This document shows positions 3,669 to 63,165 of a stretch of 64,000 nucleotides of DNA, one piece after another. Each line of letters starts with the position of its first letter. The stretch's first letter is position 1. Position numbers and translations under genes: made by a program. The notes beneath the pieces are model-generated. The model was not told the origin of the DNA. It searched no databases and saw only the letters and a list, made by a program, of their open reading frames with translations. The stretch comes from an uncultured bacterium (GTDB taxonomy: Bacteria > Babelota > Babeliae > Babelales > RVW-14). Where the stretch lies: contig CAVXAT010000011.1 of NCBI GenBank assembly GCA_963759805.1, positions 1-64,000 on the forward strand, given 5' to 3'.

Positions 3669-4432
3669 GGTTGAGTATCTTTTTTTGTTAGACTGCCTGC
3701 TTTTCGTGCCCGCCGACCTGTCCGCCATAGCCTTGGCGACGGGGGAAGCCACGAGCAAAGCGAGGGCGAAGGCTGGGTGAAAACCGTTTTTGCAAAAGCG
3801 ATAAATGGAGTTGCCAGAGCGATTGCAATTAGTTTGATTGCAAAACTTAAAGTAATAACTTGTGTGACCGAGTAGACAATTCCGTACAGCGCGGCAAACG
3901 TGAAAACAACCGTATCAATAAATTGACTGAGCGATGTCGTAAGTCCAGAACGCAGTGCAAGAAATTTACCATTAAATGTTTTTTGCAAAAAACCAAAAAT
4001 TAGAATTGAGCTGGATTGCGATATCAGATAAGCGATAATCGAAGCGATAATTATGCGTGGCGTAAAACTTAAAATAGAATAAAAGCTTGTGTGCATTGTG
4101 TCTGCCGGACTAGGGGTATACCAGAGTTGAAAAATGCTATAAACCAGAAAACTTAGCAGCATGAGAAAACTGATTTTTATGGCTTTTTTTGCCGAATTAG
4201 TTCCATAAAACTCTTGCAATAAATTCAGGCTAAGTTCTGCGCCGATTATAAAAACATCTGTTCCTGTTGCATTAAAGCCAAAAAGAGCGATCTGTTTGGT
4301 AACGAAAAGATTGGCAACCACGCATTGTAATGCGATTATGGAAATCAGAGCAGATTTGCCCAAACGCAAAGCAACAAGCCCTAAAATCGTGACGGAGATG
4401 ATGTGTAATAAGAATATTAATTCGTTGATCAT
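3665..4432 (-). CDS. yhhQ: Queuosine-precursor transporter (YhhQ/Vut_1 family)
   Basis: ANLFVTK, EFYG, RIIIASIIAYLISQ, SQFIDTVVF motifs; about 6 TM segments; coupled to tgt; C-terminal tail formed by a palindromic element. Confidence 0.9.
   Translation of the reverse strand: MINELIFLLHIISVTILGLVALRLGKSALISIIALQCVVANLFVTKQIALFGFNATGTDVFIIGAELSLNLLQEFYGTNSAKKAIKISFLMLLSFLVYSIFQLWYTPSPADTMHTSFYSILSFTPRIIIASIIAYLISQSSSILIFGFLQKTFNGKFLALRSGLTTSLSQFIDTVVFTFAALYGIVYSVTQVITLSFAIKLIAIALATPFIAFAKTVFTQPSPSLCSWLPPSPRLWRTGRRARKAGSLTKKDTQP
3693..3779. repeat. Nested GC-rich hairpin element (family B) at the yhhQ 3' end
   Basis: CCTGTCCGCCATAGCCTTGGCGACGGGGGA within an outer CCCGCCGA|AGCC...GGCGAAGGCTGGG; same layout as 19503-19570. 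Confidence 0.8.
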
Positions 4433-4709
4433 AACTAAAAAAATGCCTTTAAATCCAGCTTTTTAACAACTGCTTTTAAATTTATCATATTTACTACTTA
4501 TTGGAAATTATGTTTATTTTGTTGAATATTTATGGGTTTTGAATGCTATTTTTTTATGTTCTATTTTTTCTCTGCTGCGGTATGTTAGAGTAAGTTTTAG
4601 CTAGTTAATTTTTCTATTGATTTTTTAAGCTCACACATACTTACAGTCAGTTTTATATGATTGCAAAATGCGTTTATTGACTGTGTTTTTAAATATAAGG
4701 AGTTGAAGT

Positions 4710-5210
4710 ATGAAGAAAATGTTTCCATTGATGTTTGCATTAGTGTTTGCAAATCAAGTATTTGCGATAGAGTCAGAAGCTGTCGAGCCTAATGCACTAG
4801 AAGCCCTAACCAAAGCAGTTGAGCTAGATGAAGTAACCAAAGCGGAAGCTGTCGTTATTTGCGATGCCCTTAGGAAAGAAGGCTTGACGAATGAGCAGAT
4901 AATTACGGCGGCAAAAGAAGAATTGCGCAATGAAACAACAGATCATATTTGGGATTTGATTAAGAATAAACCTGAAGTATGGATAAGTTTTTTGATTGGT
5001 GTAGGAACAACCTTAGTAACTTATGGTATTATTACACTTTGTCGGATGGTTTACAGAAAGATAGCAAAAAGAGGTCACACTGAACAACTACCAGAATCAC
5101 ATTATCCTGCCGATGATATTTTGTATGTCCGACCAAAATACCCTTCAAGACCCACTACACCAAAAACCAATTGTTTCGACTGCCTCCCCCGACGCCCTGC
5201 GTCTCATTAA
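4710..5210 (+). CDS. Secreted/membrane hypothetical protein, paralogue of 6122-6589
   Basis: Signal peptide MKKMFPLMFALVFANQVFA, one TM segment, AGGAG RBS. Confidence 0.8.
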   Translation: MKKMFPLMFALVFANQVFAIESEAVEPNALEALTKAVELDEVTKAEAVVICDALRKEGLTNEQIITAAKEELRNETTDHIWDLIKNKPEVWISFLIGVGTTLVTYGIITLCRMVYRKIAKRGHTEQLPESHYPADDILYVRPKYPSRPTTPKTNCFDCLPRRPASH

Positions 5211-5248
5211 CAGAAATTTACGTCAGTCAGCGATTTATTAATTAATAG

Positions 5249-5277
5249 AAGGGGTATGCAAAACATGCCCCTTTTTG
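5249..5277 (+). terminator. Intrinsic terminator (duplicated at 6635-6663)
   Basis: AAGGGGTATG-CAAAA-CATGCCCCTT followed by a T tract. Confidence 0.7.
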
Positions 5278-5376
5278 ATATATATTTATTGCTTATTGGA
5301 AATTATGTTTATTTTGTTGAATATTTATGGGTTTTGAGTACTATTTTTCTATGTACTTTTAACTTTTTAGGATCTT

Positions 5377-5988
5377 ATGAAAAACAAAATTGGGACAAAT
5401 GAAATTTGGGCCTGGTATCACAAAATTTTGCAAGATAAGCGGTGGCTAAATATATCGAATGTTTTTACGTTGATAAGAATTTTGCTTTCGCCTGTTATTG
5501 TTTGGCAAATGTCACGTCGAAATTGGAATTTCGCATTTGGGCTTTTTGTTGTTGGGGCTGTTACAGATCTTTTAGATGGGTATTTGGCCAGACTTTTTAA
5601 TACTCAAACAAATCTTGGTCGAATGCTTGATCCGATTGCAGATAAAATATTTTTGGTTTCCTCTTTTTTTTCCCTATCATTTGTCAGTACGCCTTCGTTC
5701 CAGATTCCTGCCTGGTTTGTGTACCTGTTGCTTTTCAGAGAGTTTGTATTGCTGTTCGGATGTGCACTTTTATTTGTCCTTAAAATAAAGTTTGAAGTAC
5801 AGCCAATTCTGTGGGGAAAGTTGACAACACTGTTTCAATTTATTTTTATAGTATGGATTTTTTCTTGTTACTTTTTCCACTGGATACCACTAAAAACTTA
5901 CTCTATAATTTTAATTTTACTTGCGGTATATTCCATTTTTTCTCTGCTGCAGTATGTTAGAGTAGGTTTTAACTATTTAAAATATTAA
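5377..5988 (+). CDS. pgsA: CDP-alcohol phosphatidyltransferase (PgsA-like)
   Basis: TDLLDGYLAR...T.LG..LDPIADK signature; GKLTT. Confidence 0.85.
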   Translation: MKNKIGTNEIWAWYHKILQDKRWLNISNVFTLIRILLSPVIVWQMSRRNWNFAFGLFVVGAVTDLLDGYLARLFNTQTNLGRMLDPIADKIFLVSSFFSLSFVSTPSFQIPAWFVYLLLFREFVLLFGCALLFVLKIKFEVQPILWGKLTTLFQFIFIVWIFSCYFFHWIPLKTYSIILILLAVYSIFSLLQYVRVGFNYLKY

Positions 5989-6121
5989 TTTTTTTAAAAT
6001 GTTAATTTTTTTGTTTTTTTTACTATTGATTTTTTTTAAAACTCACACATACTTACATCCAGTTTTATATGATTGCAAAATGCGTTTGTTGACTTTGAGT
6101 TTTAATCTAAGGAGTTAAGAT

Positions 6122-6589: not shown

Positions 6590-6680
6590 TAATTAACAGA
6601 ATTTTACATCAGTCAGCGATGCATTAATTAATAGAAGGGGTATGTAAAACATGCCCCTTTTTGATGTTGAAAGAGATTTT

Positions 6681-7346: not shown

Positions 7347-7352
7347 AAAAAT

Positions 7353-8774: not shown

Positions 8775-8787
8775 TATTTTGGAGAAA

Positions 8788-9582: not shown

Positions 9583-11208
9583 TCAAGCAGCTAGCCTTAA
9601 AACCAAATCCTTAAACACCTGGCCACGGTGTTTATAATTCTGGTAAAAATCAAAGCTTGTGCCGCTGGGCGAAAACAGAACCTGGTCGCCGGGCTGCATG
9701 ATTGTTTGGATATCCTGCAAGATCTCTTCCAGCGAACCCAAATTGCATGAAGCCGAACCAAAATCGCTGCAGGCAGGACCATAACAGTAAACTTTTTTAA
9801 GCTCTTTAATTTGGGCCAATTCAGAAATAATTGGAGAACGGTCAACGCCTTTGTTAAGCCCTCCCAAGATCAGAATAACAGACCCTTTATTGATAAGACT
9901 TTTGATAGCTGCAAGTGTAGATTGTATAACTGTGGCTTTTGAATCGTCATAGAATTTGACGCCTTTAATTGTTGCAAAGTATTCTACCCGATGATGATGG
10001 TCGTCAATTACAAAATCTTTGCCCTGCTTTTCAAAAAGGTTTTGTAATTCTGACATGTCGGCGCCCAGCAGGTAAAGACCAGATACTATCAGAATCCAAT
10101 TTTGAATAAATGTAACTTCAGGAAGAATGGATAGGTCGAAGAGGACATGAGATGCTGGATCAAATCTCCGGCCTTCGCACAAGGCTTCGGCGGACACAGC
10201 ACCATGACAAAAAACTGAATCAAACAAGACAAGCTTATTATCTTGTTTATAAAAAATTTTGTAGGGCTTTAAAGTTCCCGTTTTGGACAAGCCAGCTTGG
10301 GATAAAACAGATGTTGGAAGACTAGTATCAACTGGAGTATCGCTAATAAAGCAGAGATTGGATTTTAATTTTGCTACTTGCTCGGCAAATAATTTGCCGG
10401 CATCACCCTGCAAAACGTGCCATGGAAAAAGCGCAAACTGATCTTCAGTCTGGTACCTAAAAAGATTAAACTTTGCATCAAAATAATCTTTGAATGATTT
10501 ATGGCGGTCAAGGTGGTTTGGGTAACAGTTCATAAGAATTGCAAGAGTGGGTGCAAATGATTTACTAAACTCAAGCTGAAAACTGGAAAGCTCCAACACT
10601 CCCATATCATAGGAATCTTGCTGAGCAATCGCCTCAAGCATTCCCAATCCAATATTCCCTCCAACAAAAGGCTTTAAGCCGGATCCAGAATAAAGGGATT
10701 CTTTTAAACTGGATCCGGCTATATCTGATGGCTTAATTTTTTCTGTTGGCTTAATTTTTGAAAGTAACTGGGCAAAAAGTTTTGTCGTAGTAGTTTTACC
10801 AAGCGAACCTGTTACGGCAACTACTGGTTTTTTAAAATAAGTGCTAAAAACATCAAGCTCGCAAACAAATTTTGGGCTATAAGAATAAAAATCGTTGAGA
10901 TTTACGCCAGGGCTTGGAATTATATAATCGTGCAGCTCGATAAAATTTTTCATCGAAGATATCGCAGGATCAAAAAATTCAACATCTCTGGCATTTAAAC
11001 TCTGAGCATTTATATCCTGAGCATTTAAATGCTGCGTGATTGGCAATTCGATAGTCTTTTGGTCCCATACATCCAATTTTGTACTGCTCAGATCAACAGT
11101 ATCCTGATTAAGTTTTAATAACTTTTTTTCTTGCTTAAAGTTTTGAATGAAATTCAGTACAGATTTGCCAACAACACCAAACCCCAAAATCCCTATTTTT
11201 TTCTGCAT
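9583..11208 (-). CDS. murD: UDP-N-acetylmuramoyl-L-alanine--D-glutamate ligase
   Basis: SPGV, TGSLGKTTT, GGNIG, ELSSFQL, HLDRH, DDSKAT, LILGG, SP...SFD.Y.NY..RG; carries extra insertions. Confidence 0.95.
   Translation of the reverse strand: MQKKIGILGFGVVGKSVLNFIQNFKQEKKLLKLNQDTVDLSSTKLDVWDQKTIELPITQHLNAQDINAQSLNARDVEFFDPAISSMKNFIELHDYIIPSPGVNLNDFYSYSPKFVCELDVFSTYFKKPVVAVTGSLGKTTTTKLFAQLLSKIKPTEKIKPSDIAGSSLKESLYSGSGLKPFVGGNIGLGMLEAIAQQDSYDMGVLELSSFQLEFSKSFAPTLAILMNCYPNHLDRHKSFKDYFDAKFNLFRYQTEDQFALFPWHVLQGDAGKLFAEQVAKLKSNLCFISDTPVDTSLPTSVLSQAGLSKTGTLKPYKIFYKQDNKLVLFDSVFCHGAVSAEALCEGRRFDPASHVLFDLSILPEVTFIQNWILIVSGLYLLGADMSELQNLFEKQGKDFVIDDHHHRVEYFATIKGVKFYDDSKATVIQSTLAAIKSLINKGSVILILGGLNKGVDRSPIISELAQIKELKKVYCYGPACSDFGSASCNLGSLEEILQDIQTIMQPGDQVLFSPSGTSFDFYQNYKHRGQVFKDLVLRLAA
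10151..10208. repeat. In-frame palindromic element in murD (family C with nested family B)
   Basis: GATGCTGGATCAAATC[TCCGGCCTTCGCACAAGGCTTCGGCGGACACAG]CACCATGAC; compare the intact GATGCTGAAATAAATTCAGCATGAC at 60006. Confidence 0.7.
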
Positions 11209-13438: not shown

Positions 13439-13462
13439 ATACACTTAAATTTAGGATTTATT

Positions 13463-19451: not shown

Positions 19452-19570
19452 TCCGTCTACGCACCTGCGGTGCTACGTCGGACAGTCTTCGCTAGTTGAA
19501 CTGGCTTGCCAGACGACTTGTCCGCCATAGCTTTATGCGAAGGCGGAAGCTACGTAGTAGCGAAGACTGG
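19452..19570. repeat. Cluster of family-B hairpin elements abutting the tRNA-Met 3' end
   Basis: TCCGTCTACGCACCTGCGGTGCTACGTCGGA, then CCAGACGA[CTTGTCCGCCATAGCTTTATGCGAAGGCGGA]AGCTACGTAGTAGCGAAGACTGG. Confidence 0.8.
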
Positions 19571-19644
19571 TGGCGACGCTGAGATTCGAACTCAGGACCT
19601 AAGGATTATGATTCCTTCGCTCTAACCAACTGAGCTACGTCGCC
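19568..19644 (-). tRNA. tRNA-Met (CAT), elongator-like
   Basis: GGCGACGTAGCTCAGTTGGTTAGAGC...AAGGA-ATCATAA-TCCTT...GTTCGAATC...CGTCGCCACCA; G1-C72 paired; CCA encoded. Confidence 0.92.
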
Positions 19645-19740
19645 AGAAAATTTCAATAACCAACTGCTTGTCCGTCGTAGCCTTGGCGAAGACGGAAGCT
19701 AAAGCTACGTCGCCAAAAAAATTTCAATCTTGTCCGCCGT

Positions 19741-19786
19741 GGTTCGACAGGCTCACCATGAGCGCTCATCCTGAGCTTGTCGAAGG
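19741..19786. repeat. Family-A hairpin element (intact head-to-head pair)
   Basis: GGTTCGACAGGCTCACCATGAGC-GCTCATCCTGAGCTTGTCGAAGG. Confidence 0.85.
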
Positions 19787-33446: not shown

Positions 33447-33634
33447 ACCATCCCCCGATAAAGGTTAATTCTGACAATAATGCTTCAAAAGTCATAAATA
33501 TCTCTTACAATATTTCATATTGAATTTTCAACAAAAAAATATTTAAAGTATCCAAATTATTGTCCTTCGAGAAAATCTGGATTATAATCTGCAGACTAGA
33601 TTCGATAAATAAAATAATTTTTTTGGGGATAACC

Positions 33635-35206: not shown

Positions 35207-35283
35207 TTTTAAGAACAGTGCAAAATCATTGATCGTTTTTAAAGTTAAAAACCATTAAGGAAATAATTTTTTTGAGGATAACC

Positions 35284-36864: not shown

Positions 36865-37969
36865 ATTTTTTCAATGCAAATTGCCCACAGCCACCGGCAA
36901 TATCAACCCCATGACTACGCCGAACCGTAACCATAAATGACTTTGATTTTAAGAACAGTGCAAAATCATTGATAGTTTTTTCTGTCGAAGCGCGCAATGC
37001 AGGTTTCTGCATTGTATCGTTTGTTGGGTTATACGGAATCAGATTAAATTTAACCTTAACGTTACTCAAAAGCCTGACAAGTTGCTTCGCATGCTCGGCC
37101 TGATCGTTTATGCCCGCTAACATTATGTACTCAATCGTTATGCAATCACGTTTGCCTAATTCAATTTTTTGCAGCTCACCTACAAGCTTTGATAGCGGGA
37201 ACGTTTTATTAATCGGCATGTACTCTGACCTAAGTTCATCGTTTGGAAAATGGAGCGAAACGGCAAGATTTACTTCAAACTTATTGATAAATGCCGCAAT
37301 ACCGGGACCAACCCCGGCAGTAGAAACCGTAATTTTTGATCTGGACAAACCCAATAAATTTTCATCAAGTAGAGTAGATATAGCCCTTTTAACTGCATCT
37401 AAATTCAGAAACGGCTCTCCCATGCCCATAAAAACCACATTTGAGATACGGCCCGCAAGCTTGTGCTCTTGTGCATATTTTTCAACAACCAAAAACTGTC
37501 CTACAATTTCGCTTGAATCAAGCTTTCTGACAAAACCGATCTCGGAACCGGTAGCACAAAAACGGCACTTGAGAGGACACCCAACCATGCAAGATACACA
37601 GATGGTAGCACGTCTTGAAACTATACCCTTTTCATCCTGGCCTGCCAGCCATAGCCTTCCAGAGGCGACGGCTGGAACGATCATTAAAATAGATTCGATT
37701 AATTTACCATCGTGCGCTTTGAGTAAGAACTTATAAGAACCATCTTTTTTGGACTCAATAACATCTTCAATTTGCGGAACAAAAAAATCGAATTTCTCTG
37801 ATAGCATAGTCTGCATGTTTTTTGAAAAACTTGTCATTTTAGAAAAATCGAACACATGCTTTTTGAAAATCCAATCACAAAGTTGGGTAAGCCTGAATTT
37901 TTCAAATCCAAATTCAAGCATTAACTCTTTAAGTTCACCAAACGATAAATCCAAAATATTTTTTCTCAT
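36857..37969 (-). CDS. rlmN: Radical SAM 23S rRNA/tRNA m2A methyltransferase
   Basis: GCPLKCRFCATG, VFMGMGEP, LAVSLH, NLIPYN, GCGQ; 12-aa insertion PAVASGRLWLAG. Confidence 0.96.
   Translation of the reverse strand: MRKNILDLSFGELKELMLEFGFEKFRLTQLCDWIFKKHVFDFSKMTSFSKNMQTMLSEKFDFFVPQIEDVIESKKDGSYKFLLKAHDGKLIESILMIVPAVASGRLWLAGQDEKGIVSRRATICVSCMVGCPLKCRFCATGSEIGFVRKLDSSEIVGQFLVVEKYAQEHKLAGRISNVVFMGMGEPFLNLDAVKRAISTLLDENLLGLSRSKITVSTAGVGPGIAAFINKFEVNLAVSLHFPNDELRSEYMPINKTFPLSKLVGELQKIELGKRDCITIEYIMLAGINDQAEHAKQLVRLLSNVKVKFNLIPYNPTNDTMQKPALRASTEKTINDFALFLKSKSFMVTVRRSHGVDIAGGCGQFALKKSK
37640..37675. repeat. 36-bp family-B element in frame in rlmN
   Basis: Minus strand CCAGCCGTCGCCTCTGGAAGGCTATGGCTGGCAGGC, closely similar to 62976-63012. 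Confidence 0.88.
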
Positions 37970-40036: not shown

Positions 40037-40343
40037 GCCACCTACGCCCTCCGCCTAACGGCTTCGTGGCTATGCATGGCAGGCCATCTCTGACCATTAT
40101 CCCGTGACTTCTTTGCGTCATAAGCAACCGTGCTTTTTAACCAAAAAGGCTTCGTAATATCCGTGCTTTTTAACCAAATATTAACTAAAGTTAGAATTGT
40201 TTGATCATCAAAATAGCTCGTAATTTATTCGCCGTCGCCAGAAAACCCCATGGCTTACGACGAAGCCCCGAGCGTTGCGATGGGGCGAAGACGGGTTTGG
40301 CTATGGCGGAATTTCGCGCGATACAACGGCTTTAAAGCCGTTG
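40037..40343. repeat. Intergenic mosaic of hairpin elements and short direct repeats
   Basis: Family-B-like elements at 40037-40085 and 40228-40312 (nested); perfect 20-bp palindrome at 40324-40343; CCGTGCTTTTTAACCAAA x2. Confidence 0.7.
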
Positions 40344-40365: not shown

Positions 40366-41685
40366 TTAAAGGCTTTTTATACCGACACAATTCCATTCAT
40401 CCGAAATCTTTTTGACAGCAACTTTATCAAAACATACTGCAATTCCACAGTCCCCTCCCCCGGCACCGGAGAGCTTGGCAGCTGCACCATATCTTTGGGC
40501 AATTCCAACCAGTTTTTTTAATTCTTGAGTCTCCAACTCGATGCCAGATTCAATACTTAATTGAGCAAGCAGATCTCGATTTTTATTTATTAAATCAATT
40601 ATTTTAACTTGATCACAGCATTTGAGTGCGCTAACAAGTTTGCATACAACAGAATTTATTGACTCCATAATTTTTTTGTACTGCACCAGATTTTCTTGTC
40701 TGAATTTATGCATTTTTTCAATCATTTTGTGAGTTGACGCACTGCAGCCGGTAAATCCTATCAATACACGCAATTTTTCAGGCATTTTAATCTCTTTAAT
40801 TTCAAGATTTGGCCAATCGGCAAAAATTATGTCACTAATTTTTTGCCCAAATTCTGCTTTTGACCCTAATTTCGACGCTACTTTTAATTCAAGTTTTGAT
40901 TTAAGCCATTCAGGATCAAATCTACTGTAAATAATCGGCTTTTGATAAGTTGAGCATGCAACATCAAAACCGCTACCCAATTTACCAAATGCAAGATAAT
41001 GAGATATGCATGCAAGTTTAAAAATTAAGTCTACGTTTTTAACAGAATCAGTATCAAAATCATGAAATTTCAAAATAGCCTTGCAAACTGCAACAACAAC
41101 AGCGGCACTGCTACCAAGCCCAGGTTTGCAAAAACTAAACTTACTGTGCCCCGGCATTGCTAAATCATTAACATTTGAAATCTCAGAAATAACCGTTAGC
41201 TCAAACGGTTTTATCGCCGCGCCCTGCTCACTCAAAAACTGCAGGCTGTTTTGAATGGCGATAAAACATGGCTTGAAACGTAACTTTTGCACTTGAGAAA
41301 TATTTGCATGATTTGCAAGAGAAACGCCATCCCAGCGCAGAACAACGTCAATCAAATCGATATCTTGGGAATTAAAAATAATCTGCTCGCAGGATACTGC
41401 ACCATTTTGCGTAATTAATATATCATTCTTGCCCGCTCGTGGTGAGTGTTTTTTGCAGGCCGCACCCTTCGATACGCCTCGCAAAGCTCGGCACTCAGGG
41501 CGAGCGGCCAAAAAAAATGTATCGAACCATGCGGGCATAAAATTTGCCTCTAATGGTACGAGTTGTACAGTAACATACTTTTGTACCGGCAAAACAATAC
41601 AACTGTTGCCCGGCTCAAGAACTCCCCACTCTCCGGCAAGCATAATTTTACCTGGAGCTTTAACCTCAATCACCGGCAACTCCAC
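40366..41685 (-). CDS. mvaK2: Phosphomevalonate kinase (GHMP family)
   Basis: APGK..LAGEW.VLEPG, K.GLGSSAA, GSGFDVA.S, KLSGAGGGDCG; adjacent to mvaD; about 35-aa element-derived insertion. Confidence 0.88.
   Translation of the reverse strand: MELPVIEVKAPGKIMLAGEWGVLEPGNSCIVLPVQKYVTVQLVPLEANFMPAWFDTFFLAARPECRALRGVSKGAACKKHSPRAGKNDILITQNGAVSCEQIIFNSQDIDLIDVVLRWDGVSLANHANISQVQKLRFKPCFIAIQNSLQFLSEQGAAIKPFELTVISEISNVNDLAMPGHSKFSFCKPGLGSSAAVVVAVCKAILKFHDFDTDSVKNVDLIFKLACISHYLAFGKLGSGFDVACSTYQKPIIYSRFDPEWLKSKLELKVASKLGSKAEFGQKISDIIFADWPNLEIKEIKMPEKLRVLIGFTGCSASTHKMIEKMHKFRQENLVQYKKIMESINSVVCKLVSALKCCDQVKIIDLINKNRDLLAQLSIESGIELETQELKKLVGIAQRYGAAAKLSGAGGGDCGIAVCFDKVAVKKISDEWNCVGIKSL
41431..41536. repeat. 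Family-A element with an inverted family-A element nested in its loop, inside mvaK2
   Basis: Outer GCCCGC-TCGTGGTGAGTG...TGTATCGAACCAT-GCGGGC; inner GGCCGC-ACCCTTCGATACG...CACTCAGGGCGA-GCGGCC (41458-41509). Confidence 0.85.
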
Positions 41686-42724
41686 TTACAATTACCTGAA
41701 TATCTTCGGTATTTATATCTCCGATATGTATATCTTCGATATTTTTAAGTTCAGATAAAATTTTATCCTGATACTTTTCAAGAGTGAGAATTTTAACATT
41801 CGGTCCGGCATCAATTGTGAAATAACACTGAACTCCATTTGCCCGTAATTGATTGACCTGATTGATGATTTTACCCGTTTTATCCGTCCAGTAATTTATT
41901 GGGGGATTAGCATTGCGCATTGTTTCATGCATCTCAAGACAATCAATCTGGGCTAATTCTCCAACAACATCCAAATCTTTATTGCCAATTGCATCAAGAA
42001 TCAACTTTACACGACGCTCCGAACTGTTAAGCCAATCCTGATAAATTTTGCTGGTTTTGACGGTAATCTGCATAGCCTGAGTTGAACTTATATGCTTTTG
42101 TTTAGACTGAACCACTACAACAATTATCCTCAAATCCGGCCAATGGTCAGCTTTAAAAATCTGCTCTGAATAAGAATCAACTCCCTGAGGTGAAGAACCT
42201 TTATGCCACAGATTAAAGCCTCCAAGTATAGATCTGGAGGCAGATCCGGAACCACGACGGGCTAAAATGGAAAGTTCTTTAGAATCAAGATTTAATTCAC
42301 AAAGCTCGTTCAACCCTTTTGCAAGGGCTGCAAAACCACTTGCACTACTGGCAAGCCCGGCAGCAGTTGGAAAATTGTTTACAGAATCAACCTGAAAGAA
42401 TGCATCTTGCAAAGCCTTGCCCTGCAAAATCGCTTCTTGTGAAGACAAGTCTTGTAAGTACTTGTCACCTGCGAACTTTTTACGAAAAACATGCAAGAAT
42501 CTCAAAATTTTAACTTTGGTCTCATCTTGCACAAAATCACCGTTTATCTTGATTACATCGCAATCCCCTGAACCAAATCCAATCTCAGTCGTTGTTTTTA
42601 AAGCATCAAGAGAAACAGAAACACTGCTTTTTGTTGGCAACATAAAAAATTCATCTCTTTTCCCCCAGTACTTAATCAAGGCTATATTTGCATTTGCTGA
42701 TGCGATAACAGACTTCATAATCAA
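41666..42724 (-). CDS. mvaD: Diphosphomevalonate decarboxylase
   Basis: NIALIKYWGK, NNFPTAAGLASSASG, RRGSGSASRS, FTIDAGPNV. Confidence 0.96.
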   Translation of the reverse strand: MIMKSVIASANANIALIKYWGKRDEFFMLPTKSSVSVSLDALKTTTEIGFGSGDCDVIKINGDFVQDETKVKILRFLHVFRKKFAGDKYLQDLSSQEAILQGKALQDAFFQVDSVNNFPTAAGLASSASGFAALAKGLNELCELNLDSKELSILARRGSGSASRSILGGFNLWHKGSSPQGVDSYSEQIFKADHWPDLRIIVVVVQSKQKHISSTQAMQITVKTSKIYQDWLNSSERRVKLILDAIGNKDLDVVGELAQIDCLEMHETMRNANPPINYWTDKTGKIINQVNQLRANGVQCYFTIDAGPNVKILTLEKYQDKILSELKNIEDIHIGDINTEDIQVIVSGVAGD

Positions 42725-44590: not shown

Positions 44591-45298
44591 TTAGTAGCTG
44601 CGTACCGCACAAAAAATTAGAATAAATGCCCAAGTCAGCAAGACCGTAAAAAAAACAGAGTCAAAGCGATCGAGAAATCCACCATGCCCCGGCAGAACAT
44701 TGCCAACATCTTTTAAACCTTTGCGGCGCTTTAAAATAGAGATCAGCATGCCACCAAGAAATGCGCAAGCAGTAAATATTAACGAAATTACAAGAACTGC
44801 TGCAAGTGTTAAGATTGTAATTTTGCAAAAATAAGAACAGATTGGTTCAATTTTGATTTTTGGCAAAAGAAAAAAATTCAAAATTGACACGCCCACAAAA
44901 CTGCCTAAAATACCCTCCCACGATTTGCCCGGACTAATTGTTGGGTAAATTTTATGGGTACCCCATATTTTCCCAACAAAATATCCAAATGTGTCCGCAG
45001 TCCATGCAACTAAAAACGGATAAAGCGGTATGAGCAGATCAACCGAGTGGAAACGGTAATTCAAAAAAATCAGACTAAATATGGGCAAAATTGGATAAAA
45101 AACAGTTGCAATCCACGAGAACGGCGACTCAAAACTAACAAGTTTTGGCCATTCAAAAACAAGAACCAAAATAAGAATTATAAGCAACAGCAATGAAAAC
45201 ATTGCAACTGAGTGAAGATATGCTCCACCAAAACAGAAAACAATAACTAGTGAGGTTAACAGTCGTTTGAAAAATTCAGCACTAAAAATAAAAATCAT
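44591..45298 (-). CDS. cdsA: Phosphatidate cytidylyltransferase
   Basis: DTFGYFVG, ISPGKSWEG, S.LKR..GLKD.G..LPGHGGFLDRFDS. Confidence 0.95.
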   Translation of the reverse strand: MIFIFSAEFFKRLLTSLVIVFCFGGAYLHSVAMFSLLLLIILILVLVFEWPKLVSFESPFSWIATVFYPILPIFSLIFLNYRFHSVDLLIPLYPFLVAWTADTFGYFVGKIWGTHKIYPTISPGKSWEGILGSFVGVSILNFFLLPKIKIEPICSYFCKITILTLAAVLVISLIFTACAFLGGMLISILKRRKGLKDVGNVLPGHGGFLDRFDSVFFTVLLTWAFILIFCAVRSY

Positions 45299-46212
45299 TT
45301 TTTATAAACTACCTTTCGCAAACAAAGCCCACACGCCTCGGCTTTGAGCAACGTTTGTCTTGGATCCGGATTCTCTAACAACGTCTTTATGTAGTTTACA
45401 GATAAATTCTTACGACGTGCAACATCCAGCGCATATCCAATCATGCGACGGATCTGAAAGCGCAGAAAGCCCGGACCTTTTACTGTAACCCTAAGCATGC
45501 CTAATCGATCAAGGCGCTCTAATTTTACGCTGTCGATAGTACGTATGGTAGACTTTTTCCCAAACTTAAGAACCCGTTGAAATGGTTCGACAAGCTCCCA
45601 GGCTTCGCCCTTCGTGGCTACGCCGGGCACGGCACCACGAGCGGGTTCTTCCCCCCGCTCATCCTGAGTGATTTGCGTAGCAAATTGTATCGAAGGATCA
45701 CGGTCTTCCGCATCCACTTTACAAAATGACCCAAAATCATGCTGCCCAACATACAAATTCAAGGCATTTTCAAACTTACCCAGATCAACCTGATCTATAA
45801 ACTTGTATAACCAAGCATAGCGAGCCAAAAAGGGTAAGGGCCGTTTAAAAAAAAGATGATAATAGTAAGTTTTTTGTGCAACATTAAAGCATGCATGAAA
45901 TTCATCTGGCACTACTTGCAAGTCGCGAATTAATATACTTTTGGGTAACATGTTATTCCAAGCCGATTTAATGATATTCAGATCTAAATCACAAAGCTCT
46001 GTTTTAAACATAGCCACCTGCTCCAAAGCATGTACCCCCGTATCTGTACGCGACGCACCAATTAAATTTATTTGATAACCAAAAACTTTACTGAATGTTT
46101 GCTCCAGGGTAGATGAAATTGAAACGGCTTCCGGCTGTTTCTGCCAGCCGAAAAAATCAGTCCCATCATAAGCAATAATTGCTTTTATCTTTTGATTATT
46201 CAACTTTTGCAT
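45295..46212 (-). CDS. truA: tRNA pseudouridine(38-40) synthase
   Basis: YDGT.F.GWQKQ, ASRTDTGVHA, HDF.SF, GFLR.QIR; about 45-aa element-derived insertion; start MQKL preferred. Confidence 0.95.
   Translation of the reverse strand: MQKLNNQKIKAIIAYDGTDFFGWQKQPEAVSISSTLEQTFSKVFGYQINLIGASRTDTGVHALEQVAMFKTELCDLDLNIIKSAWNNMLPKSILIRDLQVVPDEFHACFNVAQKTYYYHLFFKRPLPFLARYAWLYKFIDQVDLGKFENALNLYVGQHDFGSFCKVDAEDRDPSIQFATQITQDERGEEPARGAVPGVATKGEAWELVEPFQRVLKFGKKSTIRTIDSVKLERLDRLGMLRVTVKGPGFLRFQIRRMIGYALDVARRKNLSVNYIKTLLENPDPRQTLLKAEACGLCLRKVVYKK
45568..45703. repeat. Composite family A(B)+A hairpin element in frame in truA
   Basis: GGTTCGACAAGCTC[36 bp, 45598-45633]ACCACGAGCG followed by CCGCTCATCCTGAGTG...TGTATCGAAGGA. 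Confidence 0.88.
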
Positions 46213-46471
46213 ATTTTTCCCAAAACCTGACTGCCATTTTGCAAAACAGACATTATAAATATTAAGATTATTGCATTTATACAAAATAAGTACCCCCATC
46301 CAGGCGAACGCCTCGGACAGGGGAAATGGAGGTTATCAAGATTTATTTCAATCAGATCATACAATACATACATAAAAAAATCAAACTATTTTTTCCAAAT
46401 CTTGTGTGCCCAATCTCCGCCCTCAAAACTATTTCAGTTTATGCATTTAACTCAAAATAAAGATTAAAAAT

Positions 46472-54854: not shown

Positions 54855-56523
54855 ATGTTTTCTACTCGACATAAGATATTTTTGTTTCTCGCTGTAGCTG
54901 GTATGTGTGTAGCTGCGTCTGATAGTCTGTTTGCAATGCGAACGGGCCCTACGCGCAGAGAGGCGATGCAAGCACATCATCAAGCGCTTAAAAGCGCTCG
55001 TTGGGAATCGCGCCTGCTGGCACCGTTGGTGTCTGCACAACAGCAGCAGAAGACCATTGCCCAGACGCCTGCACAAGCAGGCCAGTTTGCGTTGCAAGAT
55101 GTGAGAGGTCTTGATTGGCAAGCTCCAGAACTGCCAAGCAGGGGGGAGAAGCCAAGCATGCGTATATCGCACTATGGTGCGAGCGGCTTGCGTGTGCGCT
55201 TTGCCGGATTATCGCTTTTTATGATGCTTTTTCTGGTTCAATGTGCAGCTATATGTACCCCGGATCAGTATTATACTCATCCAGAATACTATCCCTGTCA
55301 ATATGCACAGCATTACATTGATGAACATATAAGTGAACTTTATGCATTTCAGGAGAGTTGGACGAATTTTATCCATGAAGTTATTAAGCCCGGTCTTATT
55401 CCCGGTCAGGATAGCGAGACAATGGAAATTCTAGGTATTCCGATAGATTTAAAGTGTTCTCCGCATTGGACTAAATTGTGTACTCAAACTGTTCAAATGT
55501 CTAAAGAAATAGAAGGTGGAAGTTGCGCCTTTATTTTTTTTGAGAAATTGCGGAAAACACAGAAGCAGTTTAATGATTTAAGCGGCCGCTATAACGAGGT
55601 AATATGGCAGAAGTATAAGGAGGCACACGATATTATTGATAAATCGCAGGACGTTGTTGCGGTTGTCAAAGAACTTGATCCGGCATTTGCTGCAGTAGTC
55701 AACGTATTTTTAAAGCAGTCTTGGAAAGAATATGCTGCACAGTCGGGTATAACAATAAGGGATGCTCTCAATACATTGAAAGAGTTTGAAGCAAAAACAC
55801 CTGAATGGAAGGCCTGGCTCGAAAAATGGATGAAGCCGTATAAACTGGTATATGCAATCTACGAAAAGGGCAAAGATGTTGCTGGAGTTGCCGAAGAACT
55901 TGATCCTGCATTAGCTCCAGCGTTTAATGTATTTTTTACGCGGACATTTAAAGAATGTGTTGAATATTTTAAGCAGCAGCCTGATGAGGTAAACAATGCA
56001 CTCCGTAAGATATATGAGTTTAATGCAGGAATAGTTTGCTCAAGCCAAAGGTAGATGCGTATCATCGGGCAACATGCAATTTACAACAATGGCAAAGATG
56101 TTGTTGGGGTTGCCAAAGAAACTTGATCCGGCGCTAACTGAAGCATTCAGCGTATTTTTTAAGCAGTCTTGGCAGGAATATTGTGCACAGGCGTCTGATA
56201 CGATAACAAATGCGTTCAGTAAACTGCAGGAGTACGAAACAAAAATACCTGAACTCAAAACAAAGGTAGATGCGTATAATCGGGCAACTGCAATTTACAA
56301 CAATGGCAAAGATGTTGTTGAGGTTGCCAAAAAACTTGATCCGGCGCTAACTGAAGCATTCAGCGTATTTTTTAAGCAGTCTTGGCAGGAATATTGTGCC
56401 CAGGCATCTGATACGATAAAAAATTCGCTCATAAAACTGCAGGAGTATGAAACAAAAATACCTGAGCTCAAGAAAAATAATGCTCAAGCCGCTGAAGATA
56501 AGCAACATGGCTATGACTTATAA
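54855..56523 (+). pseudogene. Secreted helical-repeat protein (about 71-aa repeats x4), split into ORFs 54855-56054 and 56074-56523 by indels
   Basis: The repeat K/QDV..V..ELDPA...F.VF continues across the break; comparison with the next repeat copy shows -1, +1 and +1 indels at about 56038-56121. Confidence 0.75.
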
Positions 56524-57349
56524 GTGGGTATGGGAACAAATGGAATGAGTTGATTGTTGTAACGTGTTTTTTCATTTTAATATAGGAGGTTTCTCGTGAA
56601 AAATCTAAAAATATTTTTAGCTGTAGCGGCTTTGTGTGTAGGCGCTACACATAGTTTGTTGGCTATGCAAACCGGTAAAACGCGCAGAGAGGCGATGCAA
56701 GCACATCATCAAGCGCTTAAAAGCGCTCGTTGGGAATCGCGCCTGCTGGCGAAGTTAGTATCTGCACAACAGCAGAAAGCCATTGCCCAGGCGCCTGCAA
56801 CGCCATGCGCTTTGCAGGAAGCCTTTAGGAATGCTGCAAGGCAGATGTCGGGTGATGTAGATAGGGCGCAGAGCAGACAACTTGATTTGTTTGAACAATT
56901 ACAACATCAAGCTACCCATAACACATCACATATGTCGCATAAAACAACCCATACTGCTCACACAAATCGGAAATTGGCCTATATGTTACTTGCCTGTTTA
57001 CTTATTCAATCTGCACACGGTGCTATATTGGATGGCCAGCTAACAAAAGTAGCTGATCTAAGTGAACAAATAAAGCAAGTTTGTCATGAAATTGAAAGCA
57101 AATTTCCAGGGGCAGGAATCTGTGCTACAATACTTACTAATACTGGAATCGGTGCCCTTTGTGGGGGAGCACCTGGTGCTTTAGCTGGCGCTGGAATAAC
57201 AATAGCAGGAGAGGCGGCGATAAAAGCTATAAACAACTTTATACATGACATAGCCGGTCCAGAATGGGAAGCTAAGATAGCTCAGTACGCGGGCAAGGTA
57301 AGTCAGGGTATCAACCGGGTTGGGGCTAAAGGTCTCATGGCCTTAGATA

Positions 57350-58373
57350 ACCTGAGTTCGACAATTAAAATTCTTTGAAAAGGACTTCCCTTAAAGCAAA
57401 TCCTCTATAGATTTAGAATGTTAAAACCAATCTAAAAAAGGATTTCAAAAAGGGAAGTAAAATGATTTTAACTCAAATTTTTTATGACGTAGACAATTTT
57501 TGTAAAGATTTTAAAACACATCTAGATGCACATTCAATTTCTGCAGATTTATCGGCATTGGTAAAAAGAGAACAGAAAAGAATGTCTCTCAGTGACATTC
57601 TGACGATACTCATTTATTTTCATCACTCTGGATATCGTACTTTTAAAAAATATTATAAAGAATGTGGCGATTTGAAGGGCGCATTCGACGGGATCGTCAG
57701 CTATAATCGCTTTATAGAGCTGGTTCCGCAGGCTCTTGTGCCGTTAACAATTTTTATGAATTTGTGTTGTAAAAACAAATGTACAGGCTTTGGATTTATC
57801 GATTCAACAAAGCTTCAGGTATGTCATAATTTGCGAATCAACAGAAACAAGGTGTTTTCTGGAATTGCTGCACGCGGAAAAACGTCTACTGGATGGTTTT
57901 ATGGATTTAAACTTCATCTGATTATCAATGAGTGCGGAGAGATAGTATCTTTCATGCTCACACCTGGTAATGTTGCCGACAACAACGCATCTGTAGTAAC
58001 CAACCTTGCCCGAAAGTGCTTCGGAAAGCTTTGGGGAGATCGAGGATATATTTCAAAGAAGCTCTTTGACGCGCTTTTTGCAAAAGGCATAAAACTCATT
58101 ACAAAATTGAAGAAAAAAATGAAAATTCAAATCATGGAAATGGAAGATAGACTTGGCCTTAGTAAGCGTGGAATCATAGAATCAGTCAACTGTATACTCA
58201 AAGAAACCTGTCAAATAGAGCACTCTCGACATCGCAGCCCAACAAACTTTGTTGTCAATCTTATTGCCGGACTTGTTGCATATTGTTTCTTGCCAAAAAA
58301 GCCATCACTTCGAAGCAAGTTTATGCTTAATTTACCAGCCCATGCTTAACTTTTTATAACGTCGAACTCAGGT
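57350..58373 (+). mobile_element. IS982-family element, 1024 bp
   Basis: IRs ACCTGAGTTCGAC / GTCGAACTCAGGT; 6-bp target duplication TAGATA (57344-57349 and 58374-58379). Confidence 0.95.
57462..58349 (+). CDS. IS982-family transposase
   Basis: SYNRF, FIDST, GWFYGFKLHL, GDRGYIS, KRGIIES, IEHSRHRS. Confidence 0.95.
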   Translation: MILTQIFYDVDNFCKDFKTHLDAHSISADLSALVKREQKRMSLSDILTILIYFHHSGYRTFKKYYKECGDLKGAFDGIVSYNRFIELVPQALVPLTIFMNLCCKNKCTGFGFIDSTKLQVCHNLRINRNKVFSGIAARGKTSTGWFYGFKLHLIINECGEIVSFMLTPGNVADNNASVVTNLARKCFGKLWGDRGYISKKLFDALFAKGIKLITKLKKKMKIQIMEMEDRLGLSKRGIIESVNCILKETCQIEHSRHRSPTNFVVNLIAGLVAYCFLPKKPSLRSKFMLNLPAHA

Positions 58374-58802
58374 TAGATAGCACATTGGATGAGAAACGCG
58401 CAACTAGTTTAAGTGGTGATATTGTCACAACAGGGTTTGAAGCTAGTTCTTTCAGTTCACTTCCCAAAAGGTTTTCTGAGAGTGCCCATGGAATATTAAA
58501 ACATACTTTATGTGAAGTAAAAGAGACTTTGGTTGAAAAAGCAAAAGATGAAATAAAAGAGGCGGGCGCAGAAACGGGCATTCCTCAGTCTTTTTCTTCA
58601 GGGACCGCTTTTCCTTCAGGTAATGCTCTCAATCAGCGAGATGCTACAACAGGCATGATGCCTCTTGAGCTGGCTCATCCACTCACCGCAAATCCAGAGC
58701 AAATGTTAAAACTTGACGCCCCTTCGGATAAAGTTGCGACGGAACAGATGGGGACAATGTTTGCCGATAATTATGGTGTTGGCAAAGTTGCCAAGCAAGT
58801 AT

Positions 58803-58985
58803 TGCCAATGCCGTCCATGCCAATGCCGTCTATGCCAATGCCGTCTATGCCAATGCCGTCTATGCCAATGCCGTCTATGCCAATGCCAACTATGTCAATG
58901 CCGTCTACGTCAATGCCAACTATGCCAAGTGTGGCGAATATGCCAATGCCAGCTATGCCAAGTGTGGCAAATATGCCAAGCATGC
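58803..58985 (+). repeat. 15-bp coding tandem repeat (ATGCCAATGCCGTCT) encoding PSMPM
   Basis: About five near-perfect units followed by degenerate units. Confidence 0.9.
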
Positions 58986-59242
58986 CGAGTACGAGTGGAT
59001 TTATAACGCCGCAAGCATTCTCTAATCCAGCAGCCCAAATGCCCGGGGCTATGCAGACGCTTTCATTCGAACCAGCACCAAGCCAATTCGGTGGTAGCTA
59101 TATGCAGTCTGTAGCGCAGACATTCGACACAACAACCGGATACAAGGCGCCTGGGATAAGATAGTATTACGATATCCTGAACAAGCGTCGGCAAAGTTAT
59201 GATTTTTAATTTTCCTAGCATGACCAAATGGAAGGTTTTACG

Positions 59243-59980: not shown

Positions 59981-60005
59981 TTAAAATAGGAAACACTAAT
60001 CCATG

Positions 60006-60030
60006 GATGCTGAAATAAATTCAGCATGAC
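60006..60030. repeat. Family-C hairpin element (intact, intergenic)
   Basis: GATGCTGAA-ATAAA-TTCAGCATGAC. Confidence 0.65.
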
Positions 60031-60167
60031 AGATCTCTGATCGGAAGCTACTTTTGACATCCACAGCTATTTTTACTAGTTATCGAACTGGCGTTAAGTA
60101 TTTTCGGTTGGCGAAAATCCAACACGGATAAAGGTTAGCCACCAGCCCATAACTAAACCAATGTCTT

Positions 60168-60227
60168 GCAGTTGAAAACAGTTTAGACAGTTACTTGGAA
60201 GCAATTAATCAATCCCAAACTATTTGA
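60168..60227 (+). repeat. Diverged copy of the last 20 codons of the fic gene
   Basis: AVENSLDSYLEAINQSQTI* versus Fic AVESSLDGYLEAITQSKMD* (54636-54695); same length to the stop. Confidence 0.85.
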
Positions 60228-60247
60228 GCGATTAAGAAAGAAATTTA

Positions 60248-61312
60248 TTACTCAAACAACATTGTTAAAACCAGTTGTTCGAATTTTTCCGGATTAGAAA
60301 TCAACTCATCTTGATAAACAATTTTAAACAGCTCCGGATGTTCGTCCGCCATTGCCTGAGCATTTTCAACCTGGTGTCCCGTTGACGCTGCAACAAGCGG
60401 CACAACGATTGAACGTTTTCGAAAAAACTCAAGTTCAAAAAGGGTTCCCGCACCTGCACGAGAAATTACCAAATCAGCGAGAAGATAAAAATTTTGAATA
60501 TTCTCATCATAGGAAAAAAGCACGGCAGGCTCAGACATCTCTTTATAAAAAGTTCGCCAATCAAATGAGATATCATTACCAATTTGATGAATAACCTGAA
60601 TTTTGTCATGAATGTTTTTATTATGCTCCAAGAATGTTCTTAAAGCCTGATTCAACAGTCTTGAACCCTGAGATCCACCAAGTAAAAAAATGGTTTTTCG
60701 TTGCAAAGAAAAAGGCTTATCTGTTTTTTCATTTATCTGGTCGACTATCTCATTTTTACTTGCATTAAAAACATCCTGCCTAAAACGTATGGGATAATGT
60801 ATCAGCTCACATTTTTTGGCAAAATTTAAACCTGCAAACTTACATAATGAAATTGTATTTTTAAACGCGACAAAAATTTTACTTGCGATAGGCATCAGTA
60901 CTTTTACAGCCTTACCCGGATCAAGATTAAGTTCGTAAATTTCAATGGGCACAAGTGCAAGCTTACAACCCAAACACACCGGTATTGAAATCAGTCCACC
61001 GGTGCTGATTATTTTTTCCGGTCTATCTTTTACTGCTCTGAAAAAACTTTTAAAAAAAGCCCACAAAACTTGTACTATTAAAATGGGTAAAAGCAAAATT
61101 CTTTTGATGCTAAACTTACCTATTCCTAAACTGATAACCTCTGACAAAAAATCAGTCTTTGCAACAATCTTATGATCCAAAGCCCCTGATGCACCCCAAA
61201 AAATAACTTTCCCCTGTGGATTTGCGTCCAACCAACGTTTTGCAAAAGTTAATGCCGGCAAAATATGCCCACCCGACCCGGCCGCTACGACATAAAGTGT
61301 TTTATAACTCAT
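60248..61312 (-). CDS. murG: MurG glycosyltransferase
   Basis: GSGGHI.P, TGG..S.P, GGSQG, SRAGAGT, HQ..NA; start MSYK preferred. Confidence 0.93.
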   Translation of the reverse strand: MSYKTLYVVAAGSGGHILPALTFAKRWLDANPQGKVIFWGASGALDHKIVAKTDFLSEVISLGIGKFSIKRILLLPILIVQVLWAFFKSFFRAVKDRPEKIISTGGLISIPVCLGCKLALVPIEIYELNLDPGKAVKVLMPIASKIFVAFKNTISLCKFAGLNFAKKCELIHYPIRFRQDVFNASKNEIVDQINEKTDKPFSLQRKTIFLLGGSQGSRLLNQALRTFLEHNKNIHDKIQVIHQIGNDISFDWRTFYKEMSEPAVLFSYDENIQNFYLLADLVISRAGAGTLFELEFFRKRSIVVPLVAASTGHQVENAQAMADEHPELFKIVYQDELISNPEKFEQLVLTMLFE

Positions 61313-61334
61313 CTTAAAATCCCCCACACCTTTA

Positions 61335-63165
61335 TTATTTAATATCGCTTTTTACTTGCGCAATATGTTCTATAATCACGGCATCCCCCGGAGAAATTGT
61401 TAAGGCTTTTTCAAATAACTCAAGAGCCTGTTCTTTTTTGCCCATTTTTGAAAGTACCAAACCCTTTGTATCAAGATAAAAAGGAGAGTTGGCATCGTCC
61501 AGCAACGCCTTATTAACATAATCAAGCGCCTCGGGTAGATTTTGCCCCTGCTTTGCATAAGCGTATGCAAGTAAATTATAAGAGGCAGGATAAACAACAG
61601 GATGTTTTATTGACTGCAGAAGAATATTTTCCATATTTTTAGTTTGATTAGTTAAGAAATAGATATAGGCAACCTGATACAAAACCTTTGATTTTAAATC
61701 AAAATCCGGTACCGAATCAAAAATCTTTTTATATAAAGCAATGCTGGTTTTGTAATTCTTCTGTTCGACACAAATATCTGCCAATGCGGCCCAAACTCCA
61801 ACAGTGGCTCTGTTGGCCTTTAAAACATCTTCCAACAAACTTGCTATGGCAGATTTAGAAAAACCGGCCTGACTCAGCAACAAAATAGTATGTATGACAG
61901 AATTATCATATGGTTCGCGTTTTAACCAATCACCCATAAACGTCAAAATTTGATTATGATTCTTCATCGCAAGCAGTATCTCAACTTTTAACAGCTTGCC
62001 ACGAATAAAATTTGGAGCCTTTTGAATACAGGTATTTATATGCTGCAATGCCTTTTTGTAATTTCCGGAATTAAATTCGATCATTGCCATATCAAAGAAA
62101 TACTCCGGGGTGTCTCCTTTAAGTTTTTTAAGATACTTTAGAGCTTCAGGCATTCGATTTTGCGAAAACATAAGCTGAATTAACTGTTTCTCAATCATCT
62201 CATCACGCCCAACAAGAGTCAAGAAATGTTGATATCCCTTAATTGCTTCATTAATATTTCCAAGTTGCTCAAGAAGCATCGCTTTTAAAAGCAGCGCTTT
62301 ATCAAATTTAGGAAACATCTCAAGACTCTTCTCAATGTCACGCATAGCCAAATCGTTTTTACTCATGTGCATATGAACTTTTGAACGTAAAAAATAAAAC
62401 AGGAAGGCTCTTGGCTTGAACATCGGCTTTTCCAAACACTCATTAAGATATGCCAAGCTTTTTTCAAGCTGATTATTTTTTATAAGAGACACGGCAAAGT
62501 AGTATGCCACCTGCTCATTATCCGGAAAGTCTTTTGCCAAATTTAAAAAGATTTTCTCAGCTTTTTCATCCTGGTTAGCCATTAAAAATGCCTGCGCTAC
62601 CAAAAGATTAAATTCCAGATTTTTTTCGAAGAATTTTTTGAATTTGTCTTCGCTTTTTTGATAAATTTCAACAACCTTCAAAATTTGTCCGATATCAAAT
62701 AAAAATCTAAAGTATCCATCATAAACAAAGATCGGCGGATTCTTTGCAAAAAGTTTTTTATAAATCTGCATTGCCTGCTTGGCATCACCCTTGGAATGAA
62801 AATAATTTGCTTGAGATGTAAAGATTATAAGTGGCTTCATCTGATTTTGAATTATTACCATCTAAATCTGCAGGCTGGTCATCTACAAAGGCAATTTTGC
62901 AACCACTGTCATCTTCTAGCTGAGTAGCTTTTGGTTTAGCAGATCTCTTCTGGCACTCGCATCCTTCGACAGGCTCCAGCCGTCGCTCTTGGAGAGCTAT
63001 GGCCGGCACGGCAGGACGAGCGCCTTTAAGTAGGCGCGCTCGTGGTGAGCTTGTCGAACCATCACCCATAGGTGACGCGCCAGAGTTCATCTGATCGGGC
63101 AAGACCACTCCAAAAACTGTGCTTAAACAACTCAGAATAATCAACTTCCTAAACAAATTCTTCAT
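61335..63165 (-). CDS. Exported TPR protein, apparently one gene with a frameshift near 62815 (ORFs 62785-63165 and 61335-62861)
   Basis: Signal peptide in the upstream ORF; removing one base gives ...TYNLYIQANYFHSKGD...; multiple TPRs with a YLDT.G C-terminal motif. Confidence 0.75.
62958..63061. repeat. Composite family A(B)+A element in frame in the TPR gene N-terminus
   Basis: CCTTCGACAGGCTC[36 bp, 62977-63012]AGGACGAGCG...CGCTCGTGGTGAGCTTGTCGAACC. Confidence 0.88.

Follow-up and report, generated by a model that had tools for sequence, protein, structure and literature searches.

How do GC-rich palindromes come to lie inside unrelated housekeeping genes without breaking the reading frame, and what carries them there? 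A 64,000-nucleotide stretch of a metagenome-derived genome of the phylum Babelota (contig CAVXAT010000011.1; C11:1-64000 of the genome labeled G000, hereafter the window) raises this question, as it carries such hairpins both within genes such as murD and rlmN and between genes. The source genome measures 1.50 Mb at 37.5% GC, in 21 contigs, and is 88.7% complete. Named relatives of its RlmN and of its GIY-A nuclease (see below) are Candidatus Babeliales/Dependentiae/TM6, which places the lineage in Babelota, a group described as strictly intracellular in protists (PMC12172432; this and the other PMC articles below are cited from excerpts of their text). In-frame copies of three hairpin families, designated A, B, and C, have been inserted into about thirty G000 genes, where they are predicted to give surface loops. 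We consider it probable that each family consists of gene-less copies descended from a mobile cassette, in which a hairpin accompanies a small GIY-YIG enzyme that nicks single-stranded DNA (ssDNA), and that host repair copies the hairpin. This reading is built on the inserts themselves, their absence in relatives, the pairing of nuclease clades with hairpin families, the presence or absence of whole cassettes, and a bias toward preserved frames.

Hairpin insertions in genes of the window

A preliminary description, made from the letters of the window, had cited palindrome motifs inside and between genes, and all of them lie where they were placed (Table 1). The window genes were compared with those of four relatives (G001, G002, G003, and G007), of which G002 and G003 are referred to as sister genomes; G003 is a congener, from which 1.43 Mb was fetched. 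In this comparison, the inserts of RlmN, MurD, MvaK2, and TruA (57, 51, 162, and 147 bp) appear as gaps, in agreement with the clean in-frame insertions described initially. The exception is yhhQ, where no internal loop is formed and the element instead takes the place of the C-terminal tail that follows the conserved part (43 bp net relative to G003). YhhQ of G001, G002, and G007 ends without the element, and yhhQ of G003 (L058) carries a C hairpin at the same tail junction, which was hit independently. As a correction to the sizes first given for B inserts, the whole inserts of RlmN, MurD, MvaK2, and TruA are longer than the B units.

The MurD insert is absent at its site in G002, G003, and G007, and G001 also lacks it, with a longer gap. 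The same C+B composite is found approximately 40 residues upstream in the MurD of G002, and in MutL of G003. The MvaK2 insert corresponds to a clean gap in all four relatives, and near-identical copies of its composite lie in gnd and further genes. For TruA, the insert is absent in G001, G003, and G007; G002 (L191) has eight extra residues at the same site, marking an independent hit. RlmN has 19 additional residues compared to six relatives, located immediately ahead of the CxxxCxxC motif, in the turn of a beta-hairpin, and this loop counts 34 residues versus 15 in 103 of 112 aligned sequences. In an AlphaFold2 model based on these 112 sequences, the insert is placed between strands E90-98 and E120-125, with a pLDDT of 58 to 74 in this part and a mean of 93. 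A TruA fold modeled without an alignment was uninformative (pLDDT of 34) and was discarded.

In the tetratricopeptide repeat (TPR) gene, the insert is in frame within the N-terminal linker, as described, but the gene as assembled is split into 126 and 508 residues by a 1-nt frameshift near position 62817, about 130 nt downstream of the element. Its counterparts in the four relatives are single open reading frames (ORFs) of 529 to 598 residues, and the frameshift may be an assembly error. Together with the metagenomic origin and incompleteness of the genome, such an error could suggest that the inserts are artifacts of assembly or binning. This is barely credible, given the many different frame-preserving inserts and the independent in-frame copies in G002 and G003. 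The single DNA sequencing run that was examined contains only a relative of about 90%, in short pieces, and has no bearing on the inserts.

Hairpin families and the reading frame

Hairpins were searched for by sequence patterns instead of covariance models. Across the genome, the strict patterns matched 80 A, 63 B, and 59 C hairpins, versus none in a dinucleotide-type shuffle. A looser pattern, with neighboring matches merged, gave 186 clusters in G000, 13 in a shuffle, and 43 in the 1.43 Mb of G003. The inserts have a GC content of 0.49 to 0.61 versus 0.38 for the window, except for a C copy at 60000-60110 (0.39). Family C is made up of a TGTC tag, an 8-bp stem starting with AT, a 5-nt loop, and a CCA tail, and forms head-to-head dimers. 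The plan of family A resembles that of C; the tag is GCTC or GTTC, the stem is mismatched, and the loop varies, reaching up to 30 nt. Family B has a fixed core and a short tail, and its outer arms remain complementary in 59 of 76 copies. Units of 20 to 45 bp are assembled into nested composites of 50 to 200 bp, with B found inside A, C, and other B copies. In addition, B directly follows 10 of the 42 tRNAs of G000, and its stem often starts within the tRNA CCA. One cluster that had been listed as an intergenic hairpin copy indeed holds B hairpins, but the region also contains a tRNA-Met. Rfam searches at gathering scores, covering the window and five GIY-YIG loci (see below), returned tRNAs and no other family. 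A fourth repeat (12 ends) was observed as units of approximately 250 bp inside C-hairpin loops, which look like miniature inverted-repeat transposable elements with terminal repeats of their own.

The preliminary description had noted that the coding B inserts it could delimit are multiples of three in length. At the genome scale, both flanks could be anchored in G003 for 122 of the 186 clusters. Coding status was assigned from the G003 ORF, so that frameshifting inserts would show. This yielded 42 coding rows, of which 31 were kept. The other 11 were discarded manually: one was a duplicate, five lay at most 17 residues from the start, and five were mis-mapped, false, or not inside the true gene. 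Each of these 11 has a net length divisible by three. The frame is kept at 29 of the 31 coding sites, whereas 13 of 31 well-anchored intergenic sites are a multiple of three (Fisher p=2.2e-5; intergenic lengths are noisier). Three of the 31 coding sites do not represent clean gains, as they involve replacements or shared elements. The two exceptions are the yhhQ tail and an ABC-F gene, in which a composite of 106 bp net (G000 C1:255751-255880) causes a frameshift near the 3' end, at about residue 549 of 638. This is the only clear internal frameshift. The host genes include those of AlaS, MnmA, Prs, GpmI, Tkt, MutL, UvrC, Gnd, and SufS, as well as SufD, MiaA, PriA, MvaK1, UDG, DsbD, Fcl, and PgeF.

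Divisibility by three is not a property of the units themselves. The B units are 30 to 44 bp long, in mixed phase, and a length divisible by three was found for 5 of 6 coding versus 9 of 29 intergenic copies; seven of the 29 belong to a single tandem array, and the delimitation of the 37-bp calls is probably wrong. On these counts, the idea that B units have an inherent 3n length was rejected. Because unit lengths are mixed, the bias is likely made by selection filtering the insertions and not by unit design.

The 29 inserts that keep the frame are free of stops in the frame of the host gene, and several of the other element frames contain stops. The peptide TSSPRAR occurs in 12 of 1,259 ORFs in G000 versus none of 1,123 in G003, and its recurrence would be one outcome of selection-filtered insertion. 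Genome-wide, these results support the initial picture of several families of miniature hairpins that add peptides in a Rickettsia-like manner. We infer that the inserted peptides are retained in the proteins. Alternatively, strong hairpins within conserved genes might act as mini-introns or excised loops, with the protein restored by removal at the RNA or protein level. The preserved frames and the distribution of stops are, however, what translation would leave, the insert forms a loop in the folded RlmN model, and Rfam has no match other than tRNA, which makes removal very improbable.

Stand-alone GIY-YIG genes beside the hairpins

The preliminary description had reported no mobilizer in the window and had suggested looking for GIY-YIG or HUH/Y1 genes flanked by the hairpins. 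For the former, this proved fruitful. Besides a 606-residue ORF (UvrC), G000 contains five stand-alone GIY-YIG ORFs of three clades, all located outside the window, which are likely mobilizers. Two are situated between inverted A hairpins, one between inverted C hairpins, and two behind a tRNA and a B hairpin.

To cover the phylum, 90 distinct Babelota loci were picked by protein similarity, and hairpins were counted within 300 bp. The proteins fall into three groups, each set apart by a single branch in a quick tree (SH-aLRT 92/96/98). An A hairpin is present at 18 of 22 group A loci (B at 3, C at 0), a B hairpin at 31 of 37 group B loci (A at 0, C at 1; upstream tRNA at 24), and a C-type hairpin at 18 of 31 group C loci (B at 4, A at 1). 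Distant control windows for the 90 loci gave hairpin counts of 0 to 2. Each nuclease clade is paired with one hairpin family.

This pairing is also seen in wider samples. Among named genomes, 561 GIY-A loci were confirmed, and the best 80 of these come from Proteobacteria, Chloroflexota, Nitrospirota, Cyanobacteria, and others; an A hairpin accompanies 70 of the 80, on both sides at 42 of 71, and none has a tRNA or the SRM pattern discussed below. Among the best 80 of 551 GIY-B loci from metagenomes, 55 have a B hairpin, 33 an upstream tRNA, and none an A hairpin. The idea that the system is private to this lineage thus had to be abandoned, as the A hairpin and its nuclease occur in many phyla and C is of the known CGTC/SRM type. 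The GIY-A and GIY-B proteins have invariant Tyr, Gly, Arg, His, and Glu positions, which we take to be the typical GIY-YIG active site.

Whole cassettes differ between close relatives. At the syntenic sites, neither G003 nor G002 has the GIY-A cassette that lies on C9 of G000 (about 830 bp; nuclease gene at C9:54504-54782) or the GIY-C cassette of C1 (about 600 bp; nuclease gene at C1:132943-133227), both of which have the order hairpin-nuclease-hairpin. In G002, a GIY-A cassette is found on a different contig, and the GIY-C site holds a lone C hairpin. Across 60 genomes, A hairpins were found in 15 of 17 with GIY-A versus 9 of 43 without, where kin are not independent. From these comparisons, each hairpin family is likely spread by its own kind of GIY-YIG nuclease.

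In the proposed mechanism, a cassette of a hairpin and a small GIY-YIG nuclease would give rise to gene-less copies. The nuclease would nick exposed ssDNA at its own hairpin, with GIY-A and GIY-B presumably cutting in the same way as the Neisseria nuclease SsnA, and nicking would lead host repair to copy the hairpin, or a composite, into a new site. No strand transfer is known for such GIY-YIG enzymes. B would prefer hairpin-forming targets, namely, A, C, other B copies, and tRNA 3' ends, which would produce the nested composites. Selection would then retain only frame-preserving, stop-free insertions in tolerant loops, such that unrelated proteins come to share a small set of peptides.

Several observations weigh against this mechanism. 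No consistent target duplication, of the fixed kind that marks classical MITEs alongside the terminal inverted repeats of a DDE insertion sequence, was seen for B, with identical 4-mers on both sides of 3 of 76 copies in G000 versus 10 of 34 at GIY-B loci (A and C junctions are not resolvable at about 80% identity). Neither of the two GIY-B ORFs of G000 is complete, owing to truncation or to a contig end, and GIY-B loci are seldom bracketed on both sides (9/37 and 6/54). The missing cassettes in the sister genomes could be losses, and G000 holds five Y1_Tnp matches. Seven of the 43 genomes without detected GIY-A hold 5 to 46 A hairpins, some of these genomes being 98 to 99% complete. Finally, mobility of Ssn, the family of SsnA, is put forward as a hypothesis in the excerpts of PMC11893778.

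Seven genomes with at least five A copies each would fit a spread of hairpins without a dedicated enzyme, by template switching, slippage, or gene conversion, in which the nucleases only recognize the hairpins, for example, to restrict incoming ssDNA, and hitchhike. SsnA modulates transformation in Neisseria (PMC11893778), and slippage and recombination are suggested by the nested composites and by a tandem array of 69-bp units at C19:8447-9154 of G000, each with a 35-bp B hairpin (seven matched). However, isolated composites stand at unrelated sites without flanking homology, and a given composite is located at differing positions from one sister species to another (within MurD in G000 and G002, within MutL in G003). 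Moreover, 34 of the 43 genomes without GIY-A have no A hairpin whatever. An enzyme-free origin is therefore unlikely in our view.

The hairpins could also be REP (repetitive extragenic palindromic)-like units moved in trans by an HUH/Y1 transposase of the IS200 or RAYT type, with the GIY-YIG genes as passengers. Imperfect GC-rich hairpins with a short tag are Y1 substrates, and the hairpins described here look like them. The five Y1_Tnp matches and the absence of a target duplication at most nested B insertions would agree with this. None of the five Y1 loci of G000 is bracketed by A, B, or C, however, and the Y1 transposases were rejected as cognate enzymes. The B copies upstream of one Y1 locus belong to tRNA-Tyr and are absent at the identical twin of that locus. 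Trans mobilization would also leave the three-way clade specificity unexplained, and CGTC repeats are reported, in the excerpted text, not to flank tyrosine transposases (PMC3733652). Taken together, an HUH/Y1 origin is quite improbable, and spread by cognate GIY-YIG nucleases is preferred.

Two IS200-like Y1 transposase copies in G000, at C4:113564 and C11:76599, are identical and have their own ends, which suggests recent movement. The window does contain a DDE transposase gene (Pfam DDE_Tnp_1_3), presumably of the IS982 type, but its inverted ends are its own and do not belong to A, B, or C. The genome has four such end pairs, about 1,025 bp apart, and a related end family has a solo copy at 60082-60095 of the window. 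The remaining features of the window are included in Table 1.

Table 1. Hairpin insertions, intergenic hairpins, and other features (window positions, except for the last row)
Feature	Position	Strand	Details
yhhQ, nested B hairpins replacing C-terminal tail	3693..3779	-	gene 3665-4432, queuosine precursor transporter
murD, C hairpin with nested B, in frame	10151..10209	-	gene 9583-11208; net 51 bp/17 aa
Intergenic cluster, B hairpins flanking tRNA-Met, plus A dimer	19452..19786	.	tRNA-Met 19571-19644 (-); A dimer 19741-19786
rlmN, B unit within C-type remnant	37615..37675	-	gene 36857-37969; B unit 37640-37675; 57-bp in-frame insert
Intergenic GC-rich B-like hairpins	40037..40343	.	similar stretches elsewhere in G001, G003, G007
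mvaK2, nested A composite, in frame	41398..41559	-	gene 40366-41685, phosphomevalonate kinase; 162 bp/54 aa
truA, A+A+B composite, in frame	45556..45702	-	gene 45295-46299; 147 bp/49 aa
Intergenic C hairpin	60000..60031	-	TGTC tag, 8-bp stem, 5-nt loop, CCA tail
TPR gene, A dimer with nested B, in frame, N-terminal linker	62945..63085	-	ORFs 62785-63165 and 61335-62861
TLC ATP/ADP transporter	29510-30811
Tandem paralogous ORFs	33560-36864		33560-35206 tested, no Pfam match at E 1e-8
Phosphomevalonate kinase adjoining diphosphomevalonate decarboxylase	40366-42724
Tandem paralogous ORFs	54855-57378		54855-56054 tested, no Pfam match at E 1e-8
DDE transposase between own inverted ends	57349-58374		gene 57462-58349
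15-nt tandem repeats	58788-58964		within ORF 58385-59164, which has no Pfam match
Fourth-repeat units	G000 C1:41149-41396, C1:159370-159617, C4:96482-96730, C1:132768		C1:132768 at GIY-C cassette

Relation to known palindromic repeats

Rickettsia palindromic elements (RPE) are repeats that interrupt unrelated housekeeping genes without loss of frame and give a recurrent peptide (Ogata 2000, 2002, as summarized in PMC10969869 and PMC3733652). By analogy, the Babelota system works like RPE: palindromes have entered housekeeping genes of an intracellular bacterium with a small genome, likewise in frame and in unrelated genes, a preferred frame yields a recurrent peptide, and the insert is compatible with the fold as a surface loop (in the RlmN model only). 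It differs in its phylum, in the nesting of its short units, and in having a candidate mobilizer identified for each family. Homology to RPE is unsupported by sequence, as TIGR03777 (RPE4) has no match in G000 and six window proteins that were searched have no RPE model match in NCBIfam at E 0.1.

For the nucleases, the closest precedent is Ssn. SsnA cleaves ssDNA a few bases upstream of a hairpin to which it binds, the Ssn family is limited to cd10448, and only 2% of the NTS repeats lie within genes, according to the excerpts (PMC11893778, Chenal et al. 2025). Both systems comprise a small, single-domain GIY-YIG gene between inverted hairpins that are also scattered genome-wide. The Ssn criterion of E<1e-10 against a Neisseria homologue was applied with L372, an SRM-flanked, unannotated Neisseria gonorrhoeae protein taken as ssnA by context and not the Neisseria meningitidis protein itself. 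All 31 clade C proteins pass, whereas clade A (0/21) and clade B (0/36) fail. Against the Azospirillum homologue L371, 8 of 21 clade A proteins pass at E<1e-10, which places A nearer to Ssn than B. The published SRM pattern flanks 7 of 31 clade C loci but none of A (0/22 and 0/80) or B (0/37 and 0/80), and it has only two sites in G000 versus about 60 C hairpins. Judged by these comparisons, clade C and family C are best placed with Ssn/SRM, and two of the three nuclease kinds, A and B, lie outside the described Ssn family. These two have their own hairpins, never matched by the SRM pattern, and B is tied to tRNA 3' ends. A further difference is the approximately 30 gene sites with inserts, in contrast to the rarity of NTS in genes.

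The hairpins themselves are comparable to CGTC REPs, which have a CGTC or TGTC tag, an 8- to 9-bp stem starting with AT, a 4- to 5-nt loop, and a CCA tail (PMC3733652). Intragenic copies are described in several species, and no dedicated enzyme was found, as far as the excerpts tell (Di Nocera et al. 2013, PMC3733652). Family C shares this tag, stem, loop, and tail and the head-to-head dimers, whereas the tag and mismatched stem of A and the core and tail of B differ. As in REPtrons (RAYT with GTAG REPs), one enzyme gene lies between hairpins that have many gene-less copies, but the enzyme is a GIY-YIG nuclease and not an HUH tyrosine transposase. Full-text searches, with most subscription journals outside their coverage, found no description of such repeats in Babelota, of hairpin-flanked GIY-YIG clades beyond Ssn, or of A or B pairs.

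The in-frame behavior and one nuclease pair are thus precedented. The additions are the genome-wide load, two further nuclease-hairpin pairs, the targeting of tRNAs by B, and the empty cassette sites, which make the mobilizer question directly testable. More tentatively, and short of what we would call probable, small stand-alone GIY-YIG nucleases may be a general class of single-strand mobilizers parallel to RAYTs. This class would comprise at least three clades (Ssn and two undescribed ones), each spreading its own hairpin, one of them targeting tRNA 3' ends and hairpins; it would account for a shared de novo peptide in dozens of essential proteins within one genus and would be the missing mobilizer of RPE-like and CGTC repeats.

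How CGTC- and RPE-type palindromes spread has been an open question, for which the excerpted sources offer no dedicated enzyme (PMC3733652) or mobility as a hypothesis (PMC11893778). With the three nuclease-hairpin pairs, the empty sister sites, and the nested targets, the substrates needed to test this directly are defined. The list of candidate sequence-specific ssDNA nucleases would grow by two GIY-YIG clades that lie outside Ssn. The genus is also a natural experiment in the uptake of de novo loops by proteins, since close relatives differ at about 30 sites and MurD, TruA, and YhhQ have been hit in parallel.

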